NCBI RefSeq assembly: GCF_041886205.1 | Contig: NZ_CP169029.1 | Reading direction: 5' to 3' (one strand) | Length of the DNA: 64,000 bases | DNA from: Escherichia coli | GTDB taxonomy: Bacteria; Pseudomonadota; Gammaproteobacteria; Enterobacterales; Enterobacteriaceae | Part shown: in pieces, positions 28,975-37,116 of the stretch | How positions within the stretch are numbered: the stretch's first letter is position 1 | Layout of the letters: each line of letters opens with the position of its first letter | The notes under the pieces: generated by a model | Databases searched by the model: none | Told to the model about the DNA's origin: nothing | What the model saw: only the letters and a program-made list of their open reading frames with translations | Translations under genes and position numbers: made by a program

Positions 28975-30012
28975 TTAACGCTTATCCGCCACCAGTTTGA
29001 GCGCGTGTTCCAGCACATTAATGTCTGCACCCGCTTTATGGGCATTTTCACTTAAATAACGCCGCCACTGCCGCGCGCCAGGAATACCCTGGAACAAGCC
29101 CAACATATGCCGGGTAATATGACCGAGATACGTCCCCTGGCTGAGTTCACGCTCAATGTACGGATACATGGCGCGCACTACCGCCACCGGATCGGCATCG
29201 ATATCCGAGGAACCAAAGATCTCCCGGTCTACCGCCGCCAGAATACCCGGATTCTGATACGCCTCGCGCCCGACCATCACGCCATCCATATGTTGCAGGT
29301 GTGCTTTGGCCTCTTCCAGCGACTTGATACCACCGTTAATCGACATTGTCAGATGCGGAAAGTCACGCTTCAGTTGATACACACGCGGATAATCGAGCGG
29401 CGGGATCTCACGGTTTTCTTTCGGACTTAACCCCGAAAGCCAGGCTTTACGTGCATGGATGATGAACATCTCACACTCGCCTTTGCCGGAAACGGTGTTG
29501 ATGAAATCGCAGAGAAATTCATAGCTGTCCTGGTCGTCGATGCCAATACGCGTTTTCACCGTCACCGGAATCGACACCACATCGCGCATCGCTTTCACGC
29601 AGTCGGCAACCAGCTGCGCATTACCCATCAGACACGCACCAAACATGCCGTTCTGCACCCGGTCAGACGGGCAGCCGACATTCAGGTTGATCTCATCATA
29701 TCCACGCGCTTCTGCCAGCTTCGCACACTGCGCCAGCGCCGCCGGATCGCTACCGCCGAGTTGCAACGCTACCGGATGTTCTTCTTCACTATACGCCAGG
29801 TAATCACCTTTACCGTGAATAATCGCCCCTGTAGTTACCATTTCAGTATACAGCAACGTATTGCGGGAAAGCAGACGCAAGAAATAGCGGCAATGTCTGT
29901 CCGTCCAGTCGAGCATAGGAGCAATGCTAAACCGAGAATTCCAGTAAACACCAGTTTTTTCAGGCATCACGCTGGTTTGATTAATTTTTTGTGTTTCATG
30001 ATTATCGTGCAT
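28975..30012 (-). CDS. dusA: tRNA-dihydrouridine synthase A DusA; 5' end abuts the prophage integrase
   Basis: Dus-family TIM-barrel flavoenzyme; alternative start at 29967 would give 330 aa; the extreme 5' end is probably supplied by the integrated element. Confidence 0.9.
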
Positions 30013-30100
30013 TTTTGAACATTTCAGGCTATTTTTCTCGCGTTAGGTTCCCGCACAGGTTCCCACGTTTTATGGGAACCCGAAATAACGAGGTCGTGTA

Positions 30101-31198
30101 ATGGCGTACTATAACATAGAGAAACGACTAAAATCCGATGGCACACCACGCTATCGCTGTAATGTGATTATCAAAGAAAAAGGTGTTATCACTTACAGGG
30201 AAAGCAAAACATTCCCTAAACATGCTCATGCCAAAACATGGGGCACACAGAAAGTGATGGAATTAGATCTATATGGCATTCCATCATCAAATGCAGTTGA
30301 CGGACTTACAGTCCGTGACTTACTACACAAATATTTAAATGACCCAAATGCCGGAGGTAAAGCAGGCCGTACTAAAAGATATGTGCTAGAACTGCTTATG
30401 GATAGTGACATCTCCGCGATCAAACTATCTGAACTGACAGAAAATGACGTAATTGAACATTGCAGGCTAAGAAACAACGCTGGCGCAGGTCCAGCAACAG
30501 TCAGCCACGATGTTAGTTATCTTGGTAGTGTTCTGGATGCGGCCAAACCTGTATACGGAATTAATTACACATCAAACCCGGCGAAAAGTGCTCGTCCATA
30601 TCTACTTAAACTTGGTTTGATTGGTAAATCAAACCGTCGTAATCGTAGACCAGCATCTGATGAACTGGACATGCTCATTGAAGGCCTTCAACAACGATCT
30701 ACTCATAAATGCTCAAAAATTCCGTTCGTTGATATCCTCAAATTTTCTGTGTGGTCCTGTATGCGAATCGGAGAAGTATGCCGGTTACGATGGGAAGATC
30801 TCGACCAGGAACAAAAATCTATACTCGTAAGAGACAGGAAAGATCCACGCAAAAAGGAAGGCAACCACATGAAAGTAGCCTTGCTTGGGGAAGCCTGGGA
30901 TATCGTCCAACGACAGCCCCAAAAATCGGAATTCATTTTTCCATATAACAGCACTTCTGTTACTGCGGGATTTCAGAGAGTAAGAAGCAAATTAGGTATT
31001 AAGGATCTGCGATACCATGATTTGCGTAGAGAAGGGGCAAGTCGCTTATTTGAGGCTGGTTTTAGTATTGAGGAAGTCGCCCAGGTTACAGGGCATCGTT
31101 CATTAAACGTGCTATGGCAGGTATATACCGAACTGTATCCGAAATCTTTACATAATCGTTTTGAAGAGCTCCAAAGGAGCAGAAATAAGATCCCTTGA
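30101..31198 (+). CDS. int: Tyrosine site-specific integrase (dusA-targeting type)
   Basis: 365-aa ORF with C-terminal catalytic region (HDLRREGASR ... LWQVYTELY); first phage gene next to the dusA 5' end. Confidence 0.8.
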   Translation: MAYYNIEKRLKSDGTPRYRCNVIIKEKGVITYRESKTFPKHAHAKTWGTQKVMELDLYGIPSSNAVDGLTVRDLLHKYLNDPNAGGKAGRTKRYVLELLMDSDISAIKLSELTENDVIEHCRLRNNAGAGPATVSHDVSYLGSVLDAAKPVYGINYTSNPAKSARPYLLKLGLIGKSNRRNRRPASDELDMLIEGLQQRSTHKCSKIPFVDILKFSVWSCMRIGEVCRLRWEDLDQEQKSILVRDRKDPRKKEGNHMKVALLGEAWDIVQRQPQKSEFIFPYNSTSVTAGFQRVRSKLGIKDLRYHDLRREGASRLFEAGFSIEEVAQVTGHRSLNVLWQVYTELYPKSLHNRFEELQRSRNKIP

Positions 31199-31200
31199 CA

Positions 31201-31244
31201 CTGTTTATCCATACAGTTAAAAATAATACTGTATACAAACACAG
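31201..31244. promoter_or_regulatory. Two tandem LexA (SOS) boxes upstream of the dinI-like gene
   Basis: ctgtttatccatacag (31201-31216) and ctgtatacaaacacag (31229-31244), both CTGT-N8-ACAG; a TTGACA hexamer sits at 31195-31200. Confidence 0.7.
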
Positions 31245-31259
31245 TATAGAGGGACTTTT

Positions 31260-31508
31260 ATGCGTATTGAAATCTGCATAGCCAAAGAAAAAATGACTAA
31301 AATGCCAACCGGTGCTGTGGATGCGTTAAAGGAAGAATTAACCCGACGCATCAGTAAGCGTTATGACGATGTAGAGGTGATCGTAAAAGCCACCAGCAAC
31401 GATGGGCTTTCAGTTACACCTACTGCAGATAAAGATTCAGCTAAAACTTTTGTGCAGGAAACTCTGAAAGATACCTGGGAGTCTGCTGACGAGTGGTTTG
31501 TTCACTAA
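31260..31508 (+). CDS. DinI-family protein (82 aa)
   Basis: [31 protein letters not shown]...[16 protein letters not shown] resembles DinI (MRIEV..., C-terminal ETWESADDWFV). Confidence 0.75.
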
Positions 31509-31511
31509 TTA

Positions 31512-31570
31512 GCACTATCGGAAGTTCACCAGCCAACCGCAGCACGTTTTTGCATACAACGTGCCTGCGG
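31512..31570. repeat. Repeat copy R1 (about 60 bp, hairpin plus T-run; acts as dinI-like terminator)
   Basis: gcactatcggaagttcaccagccaaccgcagcacgtttttgcatacaacgtgcctgcgg followed by ttttt; about 90% identical to 34181-34240. Confidence 0.7.
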
Positions 31571-31731
31571 TTTTTCGAGACTATTCTGACCGTCATACTT
31601 ACACATCAACTTAGCGCCCATCCAGAGAAATTATCTTTTTTGCATTCCGAAGATTCAAAGAGTTAGCCTAATTTTCCAGATAGTTTTCTCGACAAATCTG
31701 AGGTATTTTGGTTATCGATATAGTGCTTTGG

Positions 31732-32788
31732 GGCTTTGTTGAATAAATCAGATTTCGGGTAAGTCTCCCCCGTAGCGGGTTGTGTTTTCAGGCAATACGC
31801 ACGCTTTCAGGCATACCTGCTTTCGTCATTTTGTTCAGCGCTCGTACCAGGGCCATAGCCTCTGCAACCTGACCATCGTAGTCACGCAGCGTCAGTGAAC
31901 CCCCGAACAGCTGTTTTACCCGGTACATCGCCGTTTCCGCTATCGAGCGACGGTTGTAATCTGTTGTCCATTTCCACCGCGCATTACTCCCGGTCATTCG
32001 CTGATTAGCCACTGCACGGTTACGGTCTGCATATTCACCGGGCCAGTAACCCGCACCTTTTCGGGGAGGGATAAGCGCGCTGATTTTCTTACGCCGCAGT
32101 TCATCGTGACATAGCCGGGTATCGTAAGCGCCATCGGCGGCGGCTGACCTGATTTTCCGGTGGGTTTGCCGGATTAACCCGGGGAAGGCCTCTGAGTCCG
32201 TAACGTTGTTCAGCGACAGGTCAGCGCAGATGATTTCATGTGTTTTACTGTCAACGGCGAGATGCAGCTTACGCCAGATACGGCGGCGTTCCTGGCCATG
32301 CTTTTTGACTTTCCACTCGCCTTCACCGAAGACCTTCAGCCCGGTGGAATCAATTACCAGGTGTGCGATTTCACCCCGGGTGGGCGTTTTGAAACTGACA
32401 TTAACCGACTTTGCCCGCCTGCTGACACAGCTGTAATCCGGGCAGCGTAGCGGAACGTTCATCAGAGAAAAAATGGAATCAATAAAGCCCTGCGCAGCGC
32501 GCAGGGTCAGCCTGAATACGCGTTTAATGACCAGCACAGTCGTGATGGCAAGGTCAGAATAGCGCTGAGGTCTGCCTCGTGAAGAAGGTGTTGCTGACTC
32601 ATACCAGGCCTGAATAGCTTCATCATCCAGCCAGAAAGTTATGGAGCCACGGTTGATGAGGGCTTTATTGTAGGTGGGCCAGTTGGTGATTTTGAACTTT
32701 TGCTTTGCCACGGAACGGTCTGCGTTGTCGGGAAGATACGTGATCTGATCCTTCAACTCAGCAAAAGTTCGATTTATTCAACAAAGCC
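31732..32788. mobile_element. IS903-group insertion sequence (IS5 family), 1057 bp, apparently intact
   Basis: 18-bp terminal inverted repeats ggctttgttgaataaatc (31732-31749) and gatttattcaacaaagcc (32771-32788); flanked by 9-bp direct target duplication gtgctttgg (31723-31731 and 32789-32797). Confidence 0.9.
31788..32756 (-). CDS. IS903-group DDE transposase
   Basis: 322-aa ORF filling the IS; motif DSTGLKVFGEGEWKVKKHG typical of IS903/IS102 transposases; true start may be internal. Confidence 0.85.
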   Translation of the reverse strand: MKDQITYLPDNADRSVAKQKFKITNWPTYNKALINRGSITFWLDDEAIQAWYESATPSSRGRPQRYSDLAITTVLVIKRVFRLTLRAAQGFIDSIFSLMNVPLRCPDYSCVSRRAKSVNVSFKTPTRGEIAHLVIDSTGLKVFGEGEWKVKKHGQERRRIWRKLHLAVDSKTHEIICADLSLNNVTDSEAFPGLIRQTHRKIRSAAADGAYDTRLCHDELRRKKISALIPPRKGAGYWPGEYADRNRAVANQRMTGSNARWKWTTDYNRRSIAETAMYRVKQLFGGSLTLRDYDGQVAEAMALVRALNKMTKAGMPESVRIA

Positions 32789-32843
32789 GTGCTTTGGCTG
32801 AGGAACAGCATTAAATTCAACCATTTTATTCATAGGGATTAAA

Positions 32844-33848
32844 ATGCAAGATACAGACGTTTACGTATACATAGGCGATGTTCACCGCTCTGGTCATCAC
32901 GACATCACCAAAGCGATTAAAGAAAGAAAAACTAACCATGGTTTACAAAAAAATGTTCTTTTTTGCGTCGCTACCTATGGCGGTGATCCCAGCGCAGGAT
33001 ATAGAATTGGCCGCGCTTTGCAACACAACTATGAACACATCACCGTTCTAGTTGTTGGCCCTTGCAAAAGTGCTGGAACCTTGATGGCTGTCGCCGCTCA
33101 TAAGCTCGTGATTGGTGATATGGGTGAGCTTGGTCCTCTAGACATCCAACTTAAGAAAAATGATGAGATCGGCGAATTGAGCTCGGGCCTTGTTATCGCA
33201 ACGGCGATTGATGAAATAAAAGAGTGCGCTATTTCGACCTTTAGATCATACGTACTTGATATAAAGTACAGAAACCAAATTAGCACGAAGATGTCTGCAG
33301 ATATTGCTGCTAAGCTTACTGAAGCAATCATATCGCCGATGGCCTCACAGATAGACCCCATCAAACTCGGGGAGCATCAACGAGCAATGAACATAGCGCT
33401 TTCCTATGGGGAGCGTTTGAATAGTCACTCGAAAAATCTTAAGGAAAGCTCCTTAGGCAAGTTGATCGCTGGATATCCAGCCCATGGTTTTGTGATAGAC
33501 CGTAAAGAGGCGAGGGAACTATTCAACCATGTTGAGAGTCCTACAGACTTTGCAGCCAACCTGTACGAAGTTCTTGGTGAGATGATTTCGTCAGGCGAAA
33601 TCTCTATCTTCGACAAACCGGTGATTAAAGATTTAACTCCTAAAAAACAATATGAAACAACTAACGCAGAGGAAGATTCCCATGACAACAGCAGAATTCA
33701 GGAAGGAGATGAAATCTCTGACCAAAATTCAGGAAGAGCAGAACCGCCAAGGGATGAACCTGTCCAGGGAAGCGATGGAAAACATGCGGAAATTGAAGAA
33801 GAGGCTGGAACCTTACCAGCAGAGCAACCAGATGAAGGCACTCAGTGA
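32844..33848 (+). CDS. Orphan ClpP/crotonase-fold serine peptidase-like protein (S49/SDH-like) with acidic low-complexity C-terminal tail
   Basis: 334-aa AT-rich ORF with SD (aggga) 8 bp upstream; core ...VATYGGDPSAGYRIGRAL...VVGPCKSAGTLMAVAAHKLVIGDMGELGPLD resembles Clp-fold peptidases; last ~70 aa rich in E/D/Q; family assignment from memory only. Confidence 0.55.
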   Translation: MQDTDVYVYIGDVHRSGHHDITKAIKERKTNHGLQKNVLFCVATYGGDPSAGYRIGRALQHNYEHITVLVVGPCKSAGTLMAVAAHKLVIGDMGELGPLDIQLKKNDEIGELSSGLVIATAIDEIKECAISTFRSYVLDIKYRNQISTKMSADIAAKLTEAIISPMASQIDPIKLGEHQRAMNIALSYGERLNSHSKNLKESSLGKLIAGYPAHGFVIDRKEARELFNHVESPTDFAANLYEVLGEMISSGEISIFDKPVIKDLTPKKQYETTNAEEDSHDNSRIQEGDEISDQNSGRAEPPRDEPVQGSDGKHAEIEEEAGTLPAEQPDEGTQ

Positions 33849-33869
33849 ATATTGTAGTTTCTGATTGAG

Positions 33870-33901
33870 GACCTCGGCTACTACGCCGGGGTCTCTTTTT
33901 A
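33870..33901 (+). terminator. Intrinsic terminator after the peptidase gene
   Basis: gacctcggc-tactac-gccggggtc hairpin followed by tctttttaca. Confidence 0.6.
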
Positions 33902-34180: not shown

Positions 34181-34240
34181 GCACTATCGAAAGTTCGCCA
34201 GCCAGCCGCAGCACGTTCTTGCATACGACGTGGCTGCGGC
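34181..34240. repeat. Repeat copy R2 (about 60 bp) next to the invertase 3' end
   Basis: gcactatcgaaagttcgccagccagccgcagcacgttcttgcatacgacgtggctgcgg; 54/60 identical to R1; contains 13-bp stem agccgcagcacgt / acgtg(g)ctgcggct. Confidence 0.7.
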
Positions 34241-34280
34241 TTCCAACATTAGACAAATAACTCTTTAAATTGCTTTTAAA

Positions 34281-34844
34281 TTATTTCGTTTGAATGCCAG
34301 TAACAGGAAATCGTTTATATAGGGTTGATAGCCCAACGTTATAGATACGTGCAACATAACGCCGTGATTTCCCTGCCGCTATGAGCGCTCCCATCTGTTG
34401 CCACTGCTCGTCGCTAAACTTCGGTCTACGCCCACCAATCCGGCCTTTGGATCTGGCAATAGCCAAACCAGCTAAAGTTCGCTCGCTATTCAAATCAGAT
34501 TCATACTGCGCAGCAGAAAGAATATTACGGAAATTATAGCGACCACTTGCTGTTTTCAGGTCTACACCATCTGTAATACTCCGAAAATTAACGCCTTTTT
34601 CGTGCAGATTTTGAAACATCAATAGCGCATGTAGCACATTTCTCCCTATCCGATCTAGCTTCCAGACAATCAACTCATCTCCACTTTTCATCACCGAAAT
34701 TAATTCCTTTAACACAGGGCGATTAGCTGTTCTGCCACTGGCATATTCTTCATAAATTCGCTCACAGCCAGCTGACTCAAGTGCAAGACGTTGCAACTCT
34801 GTATCCTGATGATTTGTTGATACACGAACATACCCGTAAATCAT
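34281..34844 (-). CDS. Serine DNA invertase (Pin/Gin/Hin/Cin family)
   Basis: N-terminus MIYGYVRVSTNHQDTELQ with catalytic Ser, resolvase domain, C-terminal HTH (GLSTLYKRF); adjacent to invertible tail-fibre segment. Confidence 0.9.
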   Translation of the reverse strand: MIYGYVRVSTNHQDTELQRLALESAGCERIYEEYASGRTANRPVLKELISVMKSGDELIVWKLDRIGRNVLHALLMFQNLHEKGVNFRSITDGVDLKTASGRYNFRNILSAAQYESDLNSERTLAGLAIARSKGRIGGRRPKFSDEQWQQMGALIAAGKSRRYVARIYNVGLSTLYKRFPVTGIQTK

Positions 34845-34903
34845 GAGTGCTTCTCCTGTTGTAAAAACAGGAGAAGAGGCGAAATATCACCTGATTCAGA
34901 AAA

Positions 34904-34929
34904 ATATTTGAAAGGTTGGTTTGGGAGAA
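34904..34929. promoter_or_regulatory. Left crossover site of the invertible tail-fibre segment
   Basis: Contains ttggtttgggagaag (34916-34930), inverted copy of cttctcccaaaccaa at 36813-36827; half-site resembles gix half TTATCCAAAACC. Confidence 0.65.
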
Positions 34930-35415
34930 GGCTCAGCGTTACCCGTTGGTGTGCCTGTTCCGTGGCCTTCAGCCACACCACCAACAGGCTGGCTGAAATG
35001 CAACGGTGCACCTTTTTCTGCCGAAGAGTACCCAAAACTGGCAAAGGCTTACCCAAAGTTAAAATTACCGGATTTGCGCGGTGAGTTTATTCGCGGGTGG
35101 GATGATGGGCGAGGTGTTGATTCCGCGAGACTGCTGCTTTCAAGTCAGGCAGCATCTATCCTTGAACATAACCATGAAATGCATGGATGGACAGGGAACC
35201 CACTCATGGCTAGAGATGTTGGTGAATTAGGTACATCATCCGTATTTGCGGTGCAGTTGAGCATTGGCGATGGCGGGTTATTGTATTCGTGGAAGGATGG
35301 GAGTGGAACAACAAATGACAGTAAACGAATGGATAGAACAAATCATGTCAGTTCCGGCGCCGGTGATGGTAGCCCGCGAAACATTGCATTTAACTACATT
35401 GTGAGGGCTGCATAA
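34921..35415 (+). CDS. Alternative (currently unexpressed) tail-fibre C-terminal variable domain
   Basis: Frame opens exactly at the left crossover site with no ATG (ORF-track M is TTG); encodes tail-collar-like receptor-binding domain. Confidence 0.7.
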   Translation: MGEGSALPVGVPVPWPSATPPTGWLKCNGAPFSAEEYPKLAKAYPKLKLPDLRGEFIRGWDDGRGVDSARLLLSSQAASILEHNHEMHGWTGNPLMARDVGELGTSSVFAVQLSIGDGGLLYSWKDGSGTTNDSKRMDRTNHVSSGAGDGSPRNIAFNYIVRAA

Positions 35416-36018
35416 ATGGAACAGGCTATTTTGGGAAAAGACGGTTACGCTTTAAATGATGGGGAAATCATCGTACATAACTATGATGGCGAAACGCGGG
35501 AATATATTTCTACATCAACTGAATATCTCGCTGTCGGAGTCGGTATCCCGGCATGTTCCTGTCTGGATGCACCAGGTACACATAAAGCTGGTTATGCAAT
35601 CTGTCGCTCTGTAGATTTAAATTCATGGGAATATGTGCCAGACCATCGCGGTGAAACGGTCTATAGCACCAAAACAGGAGAATCAAAAGAAATCACCGCT
35701 CCGGGTGATTACCCTGAAAATACAACCACTATCGCCCCATTAACGCCATACGATAAATGGGATGGTGAGAAATGGGTGACCGATACTGAGGCACAGCATA
35801 GCGCCGCAGTAGACGCGGCAGAAGCACAGCGCCAGTCACTGATTGATGCTGCAATGGCTTCCATTAGTCTGATTCAACTGAAATTGCAGGCCGGACGTAA
35901 ACTGACGCAGGCAGAAACAACCAGACTTAACGCTGTGCTGGATTACATTGACGCGGTGACGGCAACAGATACCAGCACCGCGCCGGATGTCATCTGGCCT
36001 GAACTGCCGGAGGCGTAG
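35416..36018 (+). CDS. Tail-fibre assembly chaperone (Tfa) for the alternative fibre
   Basis: 200 aa with conserved Tfa C-terminus LNAVLDYIDAVTATDTSTAPDVIWPELP. Confidence 0.75.
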   Translation: MEQAILGKDGYALNDGEIIVHNYDGETREYISTSTEYLAVGVGIPACSCLDAPGTHKAGYAICRSVDLNSWEYVPDHRGETVYSTKTGESKEITAPGDYPENTTTIAPLTPYDKWDGEKWVTDTEAQHSAAVDAAEAQRQSLIDAAMASISLIQLKLQAGRKLTQAETTRLNAVLDYIDAVTATDTSTAPDVIWPELPEA

Positions 36019-36442
36019 GCCATTCAATATCTGGCGCACTGGAGGTATCAACCAGCTCCAGTGCATCCAGATAATCCAGCCACAAATTATATTGCGCCAG
36101 TTCCTCACCTTTCAGACGACCAATAGCGGCTTTACCGGGCCATTGCTTACTGTTCATGTATTCGTTGGCCTGGTTAATTAGTAGCTGTCTTTCTGATTCA
36201 GTAATTTCAATAAGCTCTTCATGCGTGGGTGGAGGAATATCTGCCCACGCAGGCAGCCCATCATCTCCGGCAATACGGATTTTTCCTTGTGGCGGTTCAG
36301 CCATAAACTCACTGATAATATTTTGATTTACTTCCTTAGCGTCTGATAAATCCCATCCCTCTGATTTATATTTATCAATCATATCCACAGGGAAAAAAGC
36401 ATTATGCCTTGCGCTATAAACATATTCGTTCATATAAATCAC
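35990..36442 (-). CDS. Tail-fibre assembly chaperone (Tfa) for the currently expressed fibre
   Basis: 150 aa, C-terminus LWLDYLDALELVDTSSAPDIEWPTPP; converges on the other tfa. Confidence 0.75.
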   Translation of the reverse strand: MIYMNEYVYSARHNAFFPVDMIDKYKSEGWDLSDAKEVNQNIISEFMAEPPQGKIRIAGDDGLPAWADIPPPTHEELIEITESERQLLINQANEYMNSKQWPGKAAIGRLKGEELAQYNLWLDYLDALELVDTSSAPDIEWPTPPAVQAR

Positions 36443-36453
36443 CCTGAATAAAA

Positions 36454-37116
36454 TTACTCACCAACAGCCCACCAACTGTAATTCATCGATACCGTGTCGC
36501 TGGTTGATGACGTTCTGTAAGCAGAATTAAAGCCGGTTAACGTTGGGCCTTCTGCAGTCATCACGAACCCTCGCCCAGCGCCTAAAGGCGCACCGCCATC
36601 ACCAGAATGAGTAAGCATGGCGCAGTCCGCTTTTTTGGGGAAAGGGATGCTGAATGTAATTCTCATTGTTTGCGTCGATAATGTCGGCGTAACCGCACCA
36701 CGACCATATTGCAGGATTTTCCCGTTGGGTAATTTCATCCATCCATCACCACTGGCAAAAGAGGCCATGTCCGGTATCTGATTTTCCCCTGTCCCCACAT
36801 CCCGTTTTGCCGCTTCTCCCAAACCAAGGTTTTCGAGAGCCGTTTTCACCGTGCCATCCGATTTGATATCGCCAAACGGATTCTTGCGGCTTAACAGCAG
36901 CGCACGAAGCGCGGTAAGCAGCTGGTCATGCCGCCCCTTCTCCAGGCTGGCACCGGATGCCTCCACCACGCTGCAAAGTTCCTCCTGCAACATGTCAAAG
37001 TAGTCATCATCCAGATCGGTGGCAGGCGTGCCGGTCTGGGGGTTACCACGGGTAAAACCGTTCTTACCCGCGCCGAACTTATCCTTCTGCGCGGTTTTCG
37101 TGTCTATACGATGCAT
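36454..37116 (-). CDS. Tail-fibre protein (constant N-terminus fused to the currently selected variable C-terminus)
   Basis: Conserved N-terminus [47 protein letters not shown]; crossover site falls at ...[10 protein letters not shown]. Confidence 0.8.
36814..36839. promoter_or_regulatory. Right crossover site of the invertible segment (inside the tail-fibre gene)
   Basis: ttctcccaaacc-aa-ggttttcgagag, near-perfect dyad; inverted relative to left site. Confidence 0.65.

Follow-up and report, generated by a model that had tools for sequence, protein, structure and literature searches.

The window analysed here, that is, the whole 64-kb stretch of DNA, is a segment of the Escherichia coli chromosome (alr-dnaB-qorA-pspG-dusA, 99% identical to the comparison locus L001). 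A prophage sits at the 5' end of dusA; its integrase gene spans positions 30101-31198. Integrases that target dusA form a known class and the placement of this one matches: within 28975-31198, the tyrosine integrase directly adjoins the dusA integration site. The N-terminus of the dusA open reading frame is presumably supplied by prophage sequence. The structural genes of the prophage are of the myovirus type (tail sheath, tape measure, baseplate, large terminase and major head protein), and its control genes are lambdoid (a CI-like repressor, a CII-like activator and an O-like initiator).

Two other features of the prophage were apparent. A Gin/Pin-type invertible tail-fibre segment, bounded by the 20-nt inverted repeats AAAGGTTGGTTTGGGAGAAG and CTTCTCCCAAACCAAGGTTT, lies at 34911-36832 within the region 34281-36832, together with an intact serine invertase of 187 aa (34281-34844, minus strand). 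Parts of this segment are found in the opposite orientation in two of the comparison loci, L002 and L003; in the annotation of L002 the invertase is a truncated pseudogene, and L003 has no room for an invertase. The O-like replication initiator gene (60989-61990, minus strand) contains, at 61558-61681, a tandem array of about eight 15-bp units in which CAGATTTTGACGGGT and CAGATTTTGATGCGT alternate, giving a 30-bp super-period. By analogy to phage lambda, where the origin lies within the O gene, these units are very likely the iterons of the prophage origin.

A putative serine proteinase gene as a prophage accessory cassette

Next to the integrase gene stands a dinI-like gene (31260-31508, plus strand), the upstream neighbour of the locus studied here. 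It is preceded by a consensus -35 hexamer, TTGACA (31196-31201), and by two LexA-box matches, CTGTTTATCCATACAG at 31201-31216 and CTGTATACAAACACAG at 31229-31244, which are the only CTGT-N8-ACAG matches in the 64-kb window. The dinI-like gene is thus probably SOS-inducible. Read-through from this gene, if there is any, would couple the following gene to the SOS response as well.

That following gene (32844-33848, plus strand) encodes a 334-aa protein designated a ClpP-fold, SDH-type serine proteinase after the name of near-identical RefSeq proteins ('SDH family Clp fold serine proteinase'); a putative ribosome-binding site, AGGGA, is found 8 nt 5' of its ATG. The protein matches PHROG 21683, a family annotated as of unknown function, at 2e-198. 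It matches Pfam PF01972 only partially (residues 37-106, E = 9.4e-6), and scores 35.9 bits with NCBIfam NF047768 against a cut-off of 250. The protease matched no defence system in PADLOC and had no sequence relative in the PDB.

The gene is framed by terminator-like structures. On its upstream side, a hairpin followed by a T-run lies 3' of the dinI-like gene (31535-31575, plus strand; -22.3 kcal/mol, z = -3.19, then UUUUU). Directly 3' of the protease stop codon, an intrinsic-terminator-like hairpin spans 33869-33900 on the plus strand, with the hairpin proper at 33869-33894 (10 pairs, 7 of them G-C, and a loop of 6) and the tail CTTTTT. Moreover, a 62-nt repeat that encodes a stable hairpin is present in two direct copies on the plus strand, at 31512-31573, the copy to which the dinI-side hairpin belongs, and at 34181-34242, the right copy being 89% identical to the left one; this pair brackets the entire stretch made of the protease gene and the insertion sequence described below. 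The right copy resembles the variant that flanks dinI in the prfC-adjacent prophages L002 and L009. A repeat pair that brackets the cassette, with a right copy of this kind, suggests that the cassette may have been gained or exchanged by recombination at the terminator-like 62-nt element.

The protease gene is patchily distributed. In the related prfC-adjacent prophage of strain S88, both the dinI-like gene and the hairpin are retained, and other genes replace the protease. A query made of the dinI-like gene, the hairpin and the protease was partly matched by 1919 genomes, of which only 20 carry the protease locus; among the matches listed, the partial ones cover the dinI-hairpin part of the query. 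Homologues also occupy accessory positions in other phages: in a Klebsiella phage, one with 59% identity has XRE/ImmA and DinI genes as neighbours, and in a Burkholderia P2-like phage, one with 38% identity lies next to the integrase. In Klebsiella phage ST13-OXA48phi12.4 (L011, 3299-4496), a 71-aa open reading frame precedes and overlaps the start of the 59%-identical homologue; no counterpart of this small open reading frame is annotated in the E. coli cassette.

The terminators on both sides, the 62-nt repeats and the S88 prophage that lacks the gene mark the protease gene, as judged from these sequence features, as a self-contained accessory cassette of the 'moron' kind. Like prophage morons, which consist of a promoter, a gene and a terminator, it has an upstream terminator-like hairpin, its own downstream terminator and a patchy presence. 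An earlier note, written from the sequence of the window, had described the peptidase as prophage cargo, and the dusA prophage genes, the terminators around the protease and the insertion-free loci with the same context bear this out.

An intact IS903B element upstream of the protease gene

Between the dinI-side hairpin and the protease gene, positions 31732-32788 are occupied by an insertion sequence of 1057 bp that belongs to the IS903 group of the IS5 family and carries its transposase on the minus strand. It is bounded by inverted repeats, GGCTTTGTTGAATAAATC at the transposase-distal end (31732-31749, plus strand) and its counterpart at the transposase-proximal end (32771-32788, minus strand), which a script check of the ends found to be perfect over exactly 18 bp and to diverge beyond. 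A repeat finder independently recovered the same inverted repeats together with 9-bp direct repeats. The transposase-proximal end faces the protease gene, and 55 nt separate the last position of the element (32788) from the ATG at 32844, the distance given by the earlier note.

Over its entire 1057 bp the element shows 100% identity to numerous copies on plasmids that carry the annotation 'IS5-like element IS903B family transposase', and we name it IS903B on this basis. More than 5000 plasmid records hold a copy at ≥90% identity. A length of about 1057 bp, perfect 18-bp inverted repeats, a 9-bp target-site duplication and a single full-length DDE open reading frame are the hallmarks of the IS903 group, so that the intact IS903-group element with perfect terminal repeats claimed before is indeed present. 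IS903B copies on Klebsiella, E. coli, Enterobacter and Salmonella plasmids have the same inverted repeats, duplication length and transposase, and the copy in the window differs from them only in its insertion site. The IS903 copies of Tn903 and of phages HK022 and P7 share its length and organisation and differ from it by few nucleotides (identity is 99.8% for HK022 and 99.4% for P7); the two phage copies are also precedents for IS903 in temperate phage genomes. In Tn903, two IS903 copies flank aphA1, whereas the window holds a single copy. A Tn903-like composite transposon was considered and rejected: 31732 and 32771 are the sole occurrences of the 18-bp inverted repeat in the 64-kb window, which has no second pair. 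The element is thus an already known one, at a position that is new but unremarkable.

The DDE transposase gene runs on the minus strand over 31788-32711 and, with the GTG at 32711 as its start, encodes 307 aa. The open reading frame is uninterrupted over 31788-32756, and a TTG start at 32756 gives 322 aa, which is the PGAP form in reference copies; in the reference copy CP077380.1, for instance, the annotated transposase coding sequence measures 969 nt. The PGAP start (the 32711-32756 region of the window; 357-1325 in L010) lies only 33 nt inside the end of the element. With the 322-aa form, hardly any space would be left for a promoter inside the element, so the shorter form starting with GTG, the "classical" protein, seems the more plausible one. 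The protein matches NCBIfam NF033579 (IS5 family transposase) over the entire profile (positions 1-289 of 289) with 357.6 bits, above the cut-off of 140 bits, and it carries D121, D193 and E259 (residues numbered as in the IS903 literature) plus the Y(2)R(3)E(6)K motif. The earlier note had considered the element probably still mobile, and the intact transposase, the perfect target duplication and the 100% identity to IS903B copies all agree with this; judging solely from the intact sequence and the perfect duplication, this copy of IS903B is probably mobile.

A private insertion by simple transposition

The element is flanked by two copies of the 9-mer GTGCTTTGG, at 31723-31731 on the left and 32789-32797 on the right, detected both by script and by the repeat finder. 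The direct repeat abuts the tips of both inverted repeats and cannot be extended by one base on either side; an exact 9-bp repeat touching both tips would be expected by chance with a probability of about 4^-9. For comparison with insertion-free alleles, the element and one 9-mer were deleted from the window in silico and the resulting empty-site query was searched against 5426 complete E. coli genomes, 20 of which hold the uninterrupted locus. The allele of E. coli GXU-23-25-310 matches it in one piece at 99.9% identity, in the same dusA-integrase-dinI-protease context. Base-level alignment of this allele, and of an allele from a prfC-adjacent prophage, showed a single GTGCTTTGG at the predicted junction. 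When four insertion-free loci (L001, L002, L003 and L004, in which the 9-mer is single-copy) were aligned to the window by BLAST, each gave two segments, one ending at 31731 and the other restarting at 32789, with a query overlap of exactly 9 bp. Before the insertion, the point of entry thus lay 46 nt upstream of the protease ATG.

IS903 transposase acts preferentially in cis; after binding to the 18-bp inverted repeats, it releases the element in a cut-and-paste reaction and joins it to target DNA cut with a 9-bp stagger, whose repair leaves a duplication. Because the insertion-free alleles carry one GTGCTTTGG exactly at the junction, this locus arose by simple transposition with a 9-bp staggered cut, and the pre-insertion sequence is recovered from those alleles. 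The perfect target duplication proposed earlier is thereby borne out by direct comparison with empty sites. The identity of the element and the mechanism of its insertion can be regarded as practically certain. One could still imagine that the element was placed at the wrong locus during assembly, since many Enterobacteriaceae have several copies of IS903B and repeats of this kind are well known to cause mis-joins. However, five independent insertion-free alleles have the 9-mer once only, and a mis-join would not yield an exact duplication of it that abuts the tips of both inverted repeats; such an artefact is hardly credible.

A target preference of WTTYA-N9-TRAAW was reported for IS903 (PMC2577343, Table 1). 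The target in the window reads ATATA / GTGCTTTGG / CTGAG and agrees with the preferred motif on one side only, at 4 of 5 positions to the left, compared with 1 of 5 to the right. The motif is a preference and not a requirement. The one-sided fit bears on the choice of the site and not on the authenticity of the insertion.

The occupied site was not seen elsewhere in the two collections searched. A 600-bp probe across the left junction detected flank-IS contiguity in 0 of the 5426 complete E. coli genomes, and the exact 40-nt junction is absent from IMG/VR. The insertion is private to the source genome and, for the same reasons, presumably recent, as the earlier note had proposed; the perfect duplication and the empty sites elsewhere point the same way. 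Recency is also consistent with the 100% identity to circulating IS903B and with published present-day transposition: IS903B insertions in or upstream of mgrB have been described in Klebsiella pneumoniae in connection with colistin resistance, showing that the element is active today (PMC12554700, PMC10540941). There too, a simple insertion of IS903B interrupts either a gene or the region that controls it. The mgrB insertions, in contrast, were selected and have a measured phenotype, whereas the insertion described here is known from sequence alone and sits in a 5' spacer rather than in a coding sequence.

Possible consequences for expression of the protease gene

Owing to the terminator-like hairpin upstream, a promoter belonging to the cassette, if there is one, would lie within the native 188 bp that extend from about 31590 to the ATG. 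IS903B splits this region: 142 bp now lie beyond the element, and 46 bp, together with the duplicated 9 bp, stay next to the gene. The positional argument therefore stands: the element lies within the sole region able to hold the cassette's own promoter, and it would stand in the way of transcripts coming from the probably SOS-regulated dinI-like gene. The specific promoter from which the earlier note saw the gene separated fared less well. Its hexamers are present on the plus strand as described, in the arrangement TCGACA-N18-TATCGA at 31689-31718 (TCGACA at 31689-31694, TATCGA at 31713-31718), and agree with the consensus at 8 of 12 positions; the near-invariant final T of the -10 is missing. 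A consensus scan did not report this site in either the window or the uninterrupted allele. A rough sigma-70 position weight matrix (PWM) gave it 2.5 bits; when the 221 bp of this region were shuffled, the best-scoring sites had a median of 8.25 bits. The match is thus at chance level, and the claim that the element cuts the gene off from its promoter is one about position, not about this sequence.

The consensus scan and the rough PWM found no plus-strand sigma-70 site above chance anywhere in the native 188 bp; of the parts of a moron, the promoter is the one that these two scans did not pick out. The top PWM match, TTCAAC-N18-TAAAAT (32816-32845), was discarded: its -10 overlaps the ATG, and the N-terminus of the protease is conserved in homologues from D5 on. 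Footprinting of the upstream region was uninformative at the distances covered, as the upstream DNA could not be aligned in the IMG/VR relatives L005, L007 and L008 (84% and 70% protein identity) or in the phage relatives at 59% and 38%, and the close alleles are nearly identical.

Could the insertion be transcriptionally neutral, either by virtue of a working promoter within the 55-bp remnant or because the gene is normally silent? The 9-bp duplication keeps the native sequence intact up to 55 bp 5' of the ATG, and the remnant next to the protease has weak -10-like hexamers such as TAAATT (32812-32817), so that a weak or activator-dependent promoter could survive there. Indeed, GTGCTT-N17-TAAATT, with its -10 at 32812-32817 and its -35 in the duplicated GTGCTT, is identical in the empty and occupied alleles at 4.85 bits, and the region further upstream has no better promoter by consensus scan or PWM. 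On the other hand, this score is below the 8.25-bit shuffle median, the -35 matches the consensus at 2 of 6 positions only, and any UP element or activator site further upstream would have been displaced by the element. We thus consider neutrality possible but somewhat doubtful.

The earlier note had also envisaged that the element re-wires the cargo gene. Activation through an outward promoter in the end of the element, or through a hybrid promoter with its -35 in the inverted repeat and its -10 in the flank, has general precedent in other IS families, and a distance of 55 bp between the end and the ATG would suit it. Yet the PWM scan of the occupied allele over 32560-32846 (plus strand) gave no new site scoring above the candidates of the empty allele, the consensus scan found no plus-strand promoter there, and transcription of the transposase gene points away from the protease. 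At the end that faces the protease, neither an outward nor a hybrid promoter was thus seen, which leaves re-wiring of this kind very improbable.

Silencing or attenuation of the protease gene is a plausible and reasonable expectation, because the element sits inside the only 188 bp able to hold the cassette promoter. One intact IS903B copy has jumped into the spacer, 46 bp (native) upstream of the protease ATG; 142 of the 188 bp, and any read-through from the dinI-like gene, have been set back by a further 1066 bp, with an antisense transposase gene in between, and 55 bp (46 bp native and the duplicated 9 bp) remain attached to the gene. With most of this region displaced and no outward promoter visible in the end of the element, protease expression would be reduced or uncoupled. 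We give slightly better than even odds to such a reduction or uncoupling, rather than activation, as the most likely effect. Against a reduction, transcription from upstream might run through the element, in which the consensus scan of the window revealed no strong plus-strand terminator. All together, the explanation we favour, with a probability of about 0.9, is that IS903B recently transposed into the spacer in front of an accessory gene of the prophage.

A more ambitious proposal is that the element is a selected knock-down that would uncouple a costly or toxic prophage protease from upstream, possibly SOS-linked, transcription, as a form of IS-mediated domestication of cargo. The moron position and the homologues beside integrases and XRE/ImmA modules would make the protease a candidate anti-phage, abortive-infection or lysogenic-conversion factor. 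We regard this scenario as speculative and improbable.

Under the favoured explanation of a recent insertion, the element is to be labelled IS903B and its target-site duplication marked, and the protease gene is to be flagged as possibly mis-expressed in the source strain. The insertion is routine biology with nothing surprising to a specialist. Being private, it is a usable strain marker, and it indicates recent IS903B activity in the lineage. The wider angle of the finding is the protease cassette only: the PHROG 21683 prophage protease is widespread, and the IS-bearing allele, with natural IS-free alleles such as those of E. coli GXU-23-25-310 and APEC O78, provides a ready pair to study it.
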